Origin: a virus
Lineage: Duplodnaviria > Heunggongvirae > Uroviricota > Caudoviricetes
Direction: 5' to 3' (one strand)
Length of the DNA stretch: 5,151 nucleotides
IMG/VR virus record: IMGVR_UViG_2537561714_000007
This document shows, piece after piece, positions 2,019 through 2,319 of this stretch. A program made the translations under genes and the position numbers. Below the pieces are notes generated by a model that was given only the letters and a program-made list of their open reading frames with translations, was not told the origin of the DNA and did no database searches. Position 1 is the first letter of the stretch, and the number at the start of each line of letters is the position of its first letter.

Positions 2019-2023
2019 GATGA

Positions 2024-2146
2024 TTAGCGGTGTGGCCTTGAGCGATAATGCTCACACACATGTTCAAGATTTCCATGCCTTATCCGTTCATAGGCATTCA
2101 CATGAACTTCTCGATCGAATTGGTCATTCAAATTGTATGTAGACAT
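2024..2146 (-). CDS. Speculative small ORF, 40 aa (MSTYNLNDQFDREVHVNAYERIRHGNLEHVCEHYRSRPHR)
   Basis: ATG at 2144-2146; stop codon abuts the terminator hairpin; only a weak GAGAAA RBS; an overlapping plus-strand ORF (1849..2142) is equally unsupported. Confidence 0.2.
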   Translation of the reverse strand: MSTYNLNDQFDREVHVNAYERIRHGNLEHVCEHYRSRPHR

Positions 2147-2186
2147 CTGTGTTTTCTCATATTGGCGGCAGCCCTACAACCGCTTG

Positions 2187-2216
2187 AAAAAATGTACCAG
2201 ACGCGCTAAGGTTACA
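2187..2216 (-). terminator. Weak terminator-like hairpin with U6 tail about 100 nt downstream of the 173-aa gene
   Basis: Minus-strand UGUAACC ... GGUACA (6 bp with one bulged A) followed by UUUUUU (plus A-tract 2187-2192). Confidence 0.3.
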
Positions 2217-2319
2217 TCGCAAATATTGTGTACCTTAACAAGGGCTCCTTTTGGAGGCTCTGGTTAAACAGCATCAATGTCGGACTGGGGAGTTGGACAT
2301 TGTGCTGAATGCTTTTGCA

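Follow-up and report, generated by a model that had tools for sequence, protein, structure and literature searches.

What, if anything, is encoded in the 300 nucleotides (nt) that separate a gene for a protein of 173 amino acids (aa) from the next strong terminator in the immunity region of a Shiga toxin (Stx) prophage? The stretch of DNA analyzed here (IMG/VR record IMGVR_UViG_2537561714_000007, 5,151 nt, below called the window) is the immunity region of Sp5/VT2-Sakai, the Stx2-converting prophage of Escherichia coli O157:H7 Sakai, and the interval in question is 2019-2319, where the current RefSeq record annotates no feature. Previous knowledge of the locus amounted to a dropped hypothetical open reading frame (ORF) and an orphan Hfq site. 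We are highly confident that the interval contains both a genuine microgene and a conserved structured RNA. The unit has three functional parts on the minus strand, i.e., a leader RNA (2147-2319), a 40-aa ORF (2024-2146, designated H0092) and a terminator (1997-2018). In the reading that we prefer, to which we would assign a probability of about 60%, they form a moron operon composed of a promoter, the gene for the 173-aa protein (which has a core-binding domain), a pseudoknotted, cis-acting leader of ~170 nt that gates production of the 40-aa protein, and a terminator. The elements of the leader and of the small gene are as follows, P denoting paired elements.

2269-2307, minus strand: P1, a long hairpin, CAGCAcAATGTC ... 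GACATTgaTGCTG, with a small apical stem ACT/AGT (from RNAalifold)
2259-2264 with 2196-2201, minus strand: P2, ACCAGA paired with TCTGGT, closing the domain 2196-2264
2204-2240, minus strand: P3, a hairpin inside the P2 domain
2183-2192, minus strand: single-stranded linker, U6 at 2187-2192 followed by CAAG at 2183-2186
2165-2183, minus strand: P4, a hairpin, GCGGT/GCCGC
2170-2174 with 2242-2246, minus strand: pseudoknot, P4 loop GGGCT paired with AGCCC
2144-2158, minus strand: ribosome-binding region, GAGA at 2155-2158, an 8-nt spacer, ATG at 2144-2146
2024-2146, minus strand: 40-aa gene H0092, MSTYNLNDQFDREVHVNAYERIRHGNLEHVCEHYRSRPHR, His/Arg-rich, ending 5 nt before the terminator stem
1988-2018, minus strand: module terminator, stem AACCCGGCC-TCCATG-CCGGGTT at 1997-2018 (8 bp, 6 of them GC), then the T-rich tail TTCTTTTCC

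Segments downstream of homologues of the 173-aa gene were compared across genome, viral and metagenome collections (47 segments, 37 of them unique, with protein identity down to 33% and one copy truncated). At every such locus examined the layout was the same: the stop codon was followed by a leader of 150-175 nt, then by a small ORF and, directly after it, by a strong terminator. The terminator that a preliminary description of the window had placed about 300 nt beyond the 173-aa stop codon was confirmed at 1997-2018, both by our scan and by AP000422, which annotates it as rho-independent, and the 40-aa ORF was found to end beside it as described. Over the 341 bases around the interval, 44 Stx phage records and 234 of 5426 complete E. 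coli genomes showed 99-100% identity to the window, while Salmonella phage Oslo carried the same module beside a different cI and a different N.

The leaders fell into three sequence types, the window belonging to type I, and all three types shared one fold, i.e., P1, a domain enclosed by P2 (in which an unpaired segment, a short P2b and hairpin P3 are found), the linker, P4 with its pseudoknot, and then YGAGR and the start codon. The preliminary description had proposed covariation analysis as a check on the hairpins of the interval, and the helices did covary in each type. In the 12 type I sequences 95.6% of cells were paired, as against 24-50% in slid controls, with 10 pairs showing double changes (0-2 in controls). 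The figures for the 23 type II sequences were 93.6% versus 34-46% and 17 versus 4-6, and on four of five measures not one of 500 shuffles attained the observed values. For the 28 type III sequences they were 85.3% versus 34-57% and 12 versus 4-11, the low paired figure being due partly to a register slip in P1 in the MAFFT alignment. Considered helix by helix, P1 was paired in 97.2% of type I cells with one double change (G-C to A-U), its type II equivalent having six pairs with double changes; type I P2 was 100% paired, with double changes at four of its six pairs, and double changes were also seen at two pairs of P3 and three of the five pairs of P4. The equivalents of the P2 domain in types II and III covaried as well. 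Within the linker CAAG was invariant in types I and II, and CAA in type III; the U run was frequent but not universal. Every sequence of types I and II kept the YGAGR motif, 7-9 nt ahead of the ATG.

Covariation also supported the pseudoknot, with double changes at two pairs in type II (94.8% paired) and at four of six pairs in type III, where pairs were counted explicitly. Reading across the types by eye, we found AGCCC/GGGCT, AGCAC/GTGCT, AAACCC/GGGTTT and AAATCTA/TAGATTT, i.e., differences on one strand were compensated on the other.

The apical 22 nt of P1 (2276-2297, minus strand) occurred among relatives as exact reverse complements, TGTCCAACTCCCCAGTCCGACA versus TGTC(A/G)GACTGGGGAGTTGGACA. 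Such inversions were seen in loci L002, L033, L040 and L105 and, within type II, between L047 and L048; they keep the stem, which suggests either that the loop is not read strand-specifically or that template-switch mutation is frequent there. Type III leaders (loci L142-L193, L044, L137 and L138) had an extra, GC-rich, terminator-like hairpin, P0, directly after the stop codon of the partner gene, ~75 nt upstream of an ATGGAG motif. In most of them the same motif of 6-8 nt stood in the P0 loop and in the P1 loop and varied from RNA to RNA (CTGAGAA, CTAGGAA, CGCTAA, CTGCAAA, TTGCC, TTGACG); the two loops could be twin binding sites.

Might the hairpins instead be inverted repeats in DNA, serving as binding or recombination sites for the core-binding-domain protein? 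That protein has a DNA-binding fold, and a P1 apex present in both orientations would be tolerable in a double-stranded DNA site. However, many helix positions are G-U on the transcribed strand and hence A-C on the other, the helices covary rather than keep their sequence, the pseudoknot and P4 make sense only as RNA, and some partners of the same RNA have no core-binding domain. We regard a DNA-level element as very improbable.

The leader of the window folded at -54.4 kcal/mol (z = -3.56), none of 200 shuffles folding as well. Its divergence among relatives (p-distance 0.06-0.38) was lower than the synonymous divergence (pS) of the adjacent gene (0.40-0.72), i.e., it evolved 2-8 times more slowly. 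The preliminary description had allowed for a non-coding spacer, and a non-functional spacer that hitch-hikes with the 173-aa gene has the missing annotation in its favor and nothing else. The conservation data refute it, because the leader diverges more slowly than synonymous sites, the helices covary in three types and the ORF is constrained at the protein level (see below); we give this explanation almost no credence.

The covariance model built from type II matched the syntenic interval of one type I locus (E 0.008), and the type III model matched one type II locus (E 6.5e-5) and one type I locus (E 0.008); the leader of the window can be aligned in sequence with the type I loci that were matched. 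Rfam 15 contained no match to the leader in the whole window or in ten related loci, and scans of small regions (in the window and in locus L166) gave only sub-threshold matches of up to about 24 bits, against gathering scores of 35-100, those in the window falling on the terminator and on the 3' portion of the small ORF. The AsxR/AgvB anti-small RNAs (anti-sRNAs) were excluded, being located 3' of stx2, as were the Pas sRNAs, whose genomic context differs. Elsewhere in the window, the Rfam scan identified the lambda cIII thermoregulator element (RF01804, 340-398, minus strand, 88.5 bits).

A compact pseudoknotted fold beside the Shine-Dalgarno (SD) sequence could also be a ligand-sensing riboswitch, or a conditional attenuator built on the U run and the P2 stem. 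Certain unpaired nucleotides (UAGCGG, CAA) stay the same from type to type, and a U run follows P2 in many members. Against this, few unpaired positions are conserved across all three types, the gene context points to no metabolite, the U run is missing in L003, L007 and L063, and a match in Rfam is absent; we consider sensing or attenuation decidedly unlikely. The preliminary description had proposed a weak terminator-like hairpin with a U6 tail at 2187-2216. The U6 is indeed present at 2187-2192, but the GTAaCC/GGTAC hairpin, although it can be drawn for the window alone, is not kept in relatives, and its arms are the 3' strands of two different helices, P3 and P2, each supported by covariation. 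Nor did it behave as a terminator: the scanner did not call it, the U run is lost in several relatives, and the signals in RNA sequencing (RNA-seq) and ribosome profiling (Ribo-seq) continue downstream.

Judged by its conservation, the small ORF is a gene. A check on the conservation of the small ORFs, likewise proposed at the outset, showed that the 40-aa ORF is under purifying selection: among six diverged sequences of its type (type A), the ratio of nonsynonymous to synonymous divergence (pN/pS) was 0.07-0.19 at pS values of 0.24-0.96, and the reading frame was kept. In the phage Oslo copy of H0092, seven of nine substitutions were synonymous, including a change from AGG to CGA. Other loci carried different small ORFs at the same position, i.e., a 47-aa type B with a CxxC...CxC pattern (pN/pS 0.10-0.17) and a 57-aa, arginine-rich type C (median 0.14). 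The three types share a loose motif and may be related. PHROGs families exist for all of them, each without known function, phrog_21154 matching H0092 at 5e-8. Searches of Pfam, NCBIfam, PADLOC and PDB sequences assigned the small proteins to no family; the exceptions in these libraries, taken over the 173-aa and the small proteins together, were sub-threshold SAM-like matches and one treble-clef match. An AlphaFold2 model of H0092 consisted of one long β-hairpin (residues 14-35) with a His/Cys cluster, and Foldseek searches with this model were uninformative (best matches E > 3). By sequence the protein is hydrophilic and basic.

In Ralstonia phage YO034_1 (locus L140, about 1500-1900) two small ORFs stand in tandem, a type B/C-like one, VIFRRFRRTKSGKLLDAQAFGLKAWPIKV, followed by a type A-like one, VHVRRYSRFRKGKLETVCEHCRSTP, which suggests that the three microprotein types are related and that their range extends beyond the Enterobacterales. 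On the plus strand, a 97-aa ORF (1849-2142) that matches phrog_22865 runs antisense to the small gene and the terminator and overlaps pL. It is probably spurious and likely annotated only in near-identical Stx phages, and it may be among the "hypothetical proteins" of some Stx phage records.

A second small ORF fared less well. The preliminary description had noted an ORF of 17 aa at 2271-2324 whose ATG overlaps the 173-aa stop codon as TAATG. The overlap of stop and start is real, whereas the ORF is actually one of 18 aa at 2264-2320, and it does not appear to be a gene, being frame-shifted, truncated or without its start in 8 of the 12 type I sequences and without the ATG in 22 of the 23 type II sequences. 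The inversion of the P1 hairpin rewrites six of its codons.

How tightly are the leader and the small ORF linked, and to what? Patterns written in IUPAC code for type I and type II leaders, when searched in the viral collection, identified 57 places, each directly downstream of a 173-aa homologue; among them were four contigs that the protein scan had missed. Type III relatives were reached via tblastn with the small proteins and then with a type III pattern, which matched 52 viral contigs. An ORF of 33-60 codons lay just downstream in 47 of these, ~45 of them being clearly type A- or type B-like. The genes upstream of type III leaders were various: a distant core-binding-domain homologue, a Peptidase_M78 (ImmA/IrrE) gene of ~160 aa, a gene for a 146-aa protein or one for a protein of ~300 aa. 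In Klebsiella phage ST846-OXA48phi9.2, the one annotated example, the Peptidase_M78 gene was preceded by an XRE gene. Because the upstream genes vary, the constant core is the leader RNA, the small ORF and the terminator, the partner being exchangeable. The preliminary description had offered a small partner protein, or a structured 3' untranslated region or sRNA of the cargo system. Both a gene for a small protein and a structured RNA are indeed present; however, since the same RNA and small ORF follow unrelated upstream genes, "5' leader of the small gene" suits the RNA better than "3' untranslated region" of the 173-aa gene. The unit of leader RNA and microgene recurs in well over 100 prophage sequences, and the candidate RNA family ranges over Escherichia, Salmonella, Cronobacter, Yersinia, Proteus, Morganella, Providencia, Serratia, Klebsiella and uncultured phages.

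Published data for Sakai show minus-strand transcripts here, with an Hfq-binding site and ribosome footprints. Coordinates in NC_002695.2 are those of the window plus 1,253,711, and those for Sakai in older papers are 142 lower, an offset that was checked in two ways, i.e., the AsxR terminator fell at the expected place and the ORF XECs114 (see below) fell exactly on an ORF of the window. Crosslinking and analysis of cDNA (CRAC) had revealed an orphan Hfq peak in Sp5, EcOnc20, which was listed as a predicted sRNA without a Northern blot (Tree et al., 2014, PMC4104026); a review of 2021 still gave it as "target unknown" (PMC7873438). The peak (old Sakai coordinates 1255628-1255753, minus strand) corresponds to 2059-2184 in the window, i.e., it spans P4 and the ribosome-binding site and reaches 88 nt into the small ORF.

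EcOnc20 thus concerns the same locus and establishes by experiment an Hfq-bound RNA from the minus strand, but it was catalogued as a putative sRNA with neither structure nor ORF, whereas here it is the part of an mRNA that comprises P4, the SD sequence and the 5' part of the ORF, the conserved structured leader lying mostly upstream of the peak. The original interpretation, i.e., a stand-alone Hfq-dependent or 3'-UTR-derived sRNA (UTR, untranslated region) acting in trans, draws on that orphan peak and prediction and on a U-rich stretch after the stem at 2187-2201. However, a peak that spans P4, the SD sequence and 88 nt of a strongly constrained ORF resembles the Hfq sites found at ribosome-binding sites of mRNAs, and no Northern band has been reported for EcOnc20. 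In addition, the RNA always stands directly before the small ORF with no conserved terminator in between, and transcripts continue to 1997-2018. We consider a trans-acting sRNA unlikely.

Translation is supported indirectly. In a study of RNA-seq and Ribo-seq (Hücker et al., 2017), the ORF XECs114 had RNA-seq values of 452/807/235 and Ribo-seq values of 135/88/2.6 reads per kilobase per million (RPKM). This ORF of 36 codons corresponds to 1969-2076 in the window (minus strand); it is out of frame with H0092, overlaps its 3' half and runs through the terminator. The Ribo-seq signal fits H0092 at least as well and probably belongs to it. By our arithmetic, the Ribo-seq coverage fraction over XECs114, 0.74, is about the share of that ORF lying upstream of the stem at 1997-2018, in keeping with a terminator there.

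Around the leader, the minus strand reads (AP000422, NC_002695.2 and our ORF list) cI (3343-4056), the 173-aa gene, the interval, the terminator, pL/OL and N. The control elements and the partner gene that complete the module are as follows.

2945-2968, minus strand: upstream terminator, GGTCGCA-GAGG-TGCGGCC, then T6; found by eye, absent from the scanner output and from AP000422
2899-2915, minus strand: operator-like palindrome, gcAAGACTcaAGTCTTg / AAGACTnnAGTCTT, overlapping the promoter -35
2874-2902, minus strand: module promoter, TTGCAT at 2897-2902, a 17-nt spacer and TAAACT at 2874-2879; read from sequence, with presumed activity
2320-2841, minus strand: 173-aa gene H0093/ECs1184

The promoter was not reported by the consensus scanner; it is conserved upstream of the 173-aa homologues in Proteus (TTGCAA-17-TAGAAT), Cronobacter, Yersinia, Salmonella and Morganella. 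The palindrome overlaps the -35 element in all enterobacterial loci, distant loci having other palindromes at the same place, and it is a candidate autoregulatory operator. With a terminator at 2945-2968, the module would be more than the tail end of the pRM transcript, contrary to the annotation of 2000. A DUF3024 gene lies directly upstream of the module in Proteus (L003, 2422-2763), in Morganella and in one metagenomic locus (L132, L135).

The AlphaFold2 model of the 173-aa protein comprised a confident four-helix N-terminal domain, a disordered acidic linker and a β-β-α C-terminal domain. The N-terminal domain has the core-binding (SAM-like) fold of tyrosine recombinases, a DNA-binding domain; a tyrosine recombinase, i.e., a core-binding domain together with an RHR-Y catalytic domain, the protein is not. 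Pfam, NCBIfam and PADLOC assigned it to no family, and a PDB sequence search was negative. The last ~54 nt of its gene (2323-2376, minus strand) are nearly identical in nucleotides between Sp5 and Proteus, the proteins being 73% identical overall. An 8-bp inverted repeat in the last 40 nt, GCCGAACG...CGTTCGGC, was set aside, as it is lost in distant homologues and a conserved peptide explains it.

The cassette occurs beside different cI/N alleles, after the Q antiterminator gene and beside tail-fibre genes. In L006, where the module follows Q, the STnc100 sRNA (RF02076, 4937-5141, 90.9 bits) lies further downstream, near a TerB and a holin gene. A moron, in the definition that Juhala is said to have given in 2000, is an autonomous cassette of promoter, gene and terminator that stands between conserved phage genes and is active in the lysogen. 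The unit described here is a moron in this sense: it has its own promoter and terminators, varied insertion sites, and expression in Sakai, and it can be considered autonomous because of the conserved promoter, the overlapping palindrome and the preceding terminator.

How might the parts of such an operon work together? The leader would fold into P1 and the P2 domain, a strand of which would pair with the P4 loop to give a compact pseudoknot immediately 5' of the weak SD sequence (GAGA). This fold, together with Hfq at the A-rich, weak ribosome-binding site, would limit and gate the loading of ribosomes and perhaps affect the stability of the mRNA. The small basic His/Cys β-hairpin effector would thereby be made only at a low or conditional level, and the upstream protein would be the DNA-binding regulator of the operon. 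We infer control of translation by the fold, repression of the operon by the 173-aa protein, and harm from a deregulated small protein.

Several points weigh against this reading. The pseudoknot is invariant within type I, its support coming from types II and III and from the comparison by eye, and the leader of the window itself was matched by neither the type II nor the type III covariance model, so that its homology with the other types rests on intermediates. A helix that would sequester the SD sequence (UUUUCA of the linker with UGAGAA) appeared in the RNAalifold and minimum free energy folds of type I, but we dropped it; since type I sequences show no variation in it and type II sequences lack it, covariation does not support it, and the effect of the fold on translation is one that we infer. 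The Ribo-seq signal was given by its authors to another frame. H0092 in Sp5 lacks the C-terminal Trp (2024-2032, minus strand, compared with L002) of all other type A copies (...PHRW, PHHW, PHNW), owing to an 8-nt deletion, and given this loss it may be partly degenerate. Finally, in a study of 2025 using TRAPP (purification of total RNA-associated proteins), ECs1184 was borderline for association with RNA (false discovery rate 0.065) and at background level in the polynucleotide kinase (PNK) RNA-crosslinking assay; the latter result suggests that it is probably not the protein partner of the leader RNA.

Genetic data raise a further possibility. An in-frame deletion of ECs1184 was not obtained and "appears to be lethal" (Mondal et al., 2016). 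Extending rather than excluding the operon that we propose, the module could be toxin-antitoxin-like, i.e., an addiction module in which the small protein acts as toxin, repression or neutralization falls to the 173-aa protein (elsewhere an XRE + ImmA/IrrE pair), and the leader limits translation of the toxin, as happens with type I toxin mRNAs. The undeletable partner, the operator-like palindrome on the promoter, partners that are regulators (a core-binding DNA-binding fold, or Peptidase_M78 after an XRE gene) and insertion at moron sites (beside cI, behind Q, close to tail-fibre genes) all fit the logic of a toxin and its repressor or of addiction, as does Hfq at the ribosome-binding site. 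However, the deletion of ECs1180 failed as well, and the authors took the failure with ECs1184 no further. The small protein, being hydrophilic and basic, is unlike classic type I toxins, and its toxicity is presumed; the PADLOC search was negative, and consensus and Rfam scans of the window revealed neither an antisense RNA family nor a convincing plus-strand promoter. With no hydrophobic peptide and no antisense RNA found, we did not class the module as a type I toxin-antitoxin system. We hold the broader toxin-antitoxin-like scheme to be possible, if tentative. More speculatively still, the widespread cassette, placed beside cI in Stx phages, might constitute a new switch for addiction, lysogeny maintenance or abortive infection, in which the pseudoknotted leader and an exchangeable regulator restrain a His/Cys β-hairpin effector (a toxin or host-takeover factor?). 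The regulator would be the core-binding-domain protein, the XRE + ImmA/IrrE pair or either of two further protein families, and the hairpin loops, duplicated in type III, would be sites of protein recognition.

In what respects does the moron operon that we favor resemble systems already known? The lysogen-expressed morons that lambdoid phages carry between cI and pL include rexAB of lambda, nun of HK022 and stk of 933W. Like these, the unit occupies the slot between cI and pL/N, has a promoter at one end and a terminator at the other, and is active in the lysogen; unlike them, it encodes unrelated proteins (by negative library searches), adds a pseudoknotted leader and a second microgene, and belongs to a type of cassette also found after Q and beside tail-fibre genes. 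Long structured 5' leaders are known from the type I toxin mRNAs hok, tisB, zorO and ralR. Shared features are a small ORF after a structured leader of 100-170 nt, a weak ribosome-binding site, Hfq, location in a prophage and an apparently essential neighbor; in the present case, however, the search for an antisense RNA was negative, the proteins are not membrane peptides but hydrophilic, basic and His/Cys-rich, and a gene for a protein partner lies upstream in the same operon. In the autoregulatory leaders of T4 gene 32 mRNA and of ribosomal proteins S15 and L20, a pseudoknot likewise lies just 5' of the start of a small protein of nucleic-acid-binding character, and feedback binding would be plausible here; the leader of the window has no sequence or Rfam similarity to these. 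Regulator pairs of the CapH/CapP type (XRE + ImmA/IrrE) control adjacent cargo. The type III RNA and small ORF that follow a Peptidase_M78 gene, XRE-preceded in the annotated example, suggest by this context a regulatory role for the partner, with the small ORF as cargo, whereas the partner in the window is a core-binding-domain protein and not XRE/ImmA. The general kind, i.e., a structured leader with a small ORF in a prophage moron, is therefore familiar, and the form is new; as far as Rfam 15 and the literature searched show, the RNA family, the pseudoknot, the selection on the microgene and the layout with exchangeable partners are undescribed.

Sp5 is one of the most studied prophages, yet RefSeq shows these 300 nt as empty. 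EcOnc20 and a dropped ORF now resolve into a defined unit of three parts that carries predictions about structure and function and suggests a reason for the failed deletion of ECs1184. The unit also defines a candidate RNA family, which has a covarying pseudoknot and comprises three sequence types, and three putatively related families of microproteins. Should the small protein prove toxic or regulatory, the module would be relevant to the stability and induction of Stx prophages.

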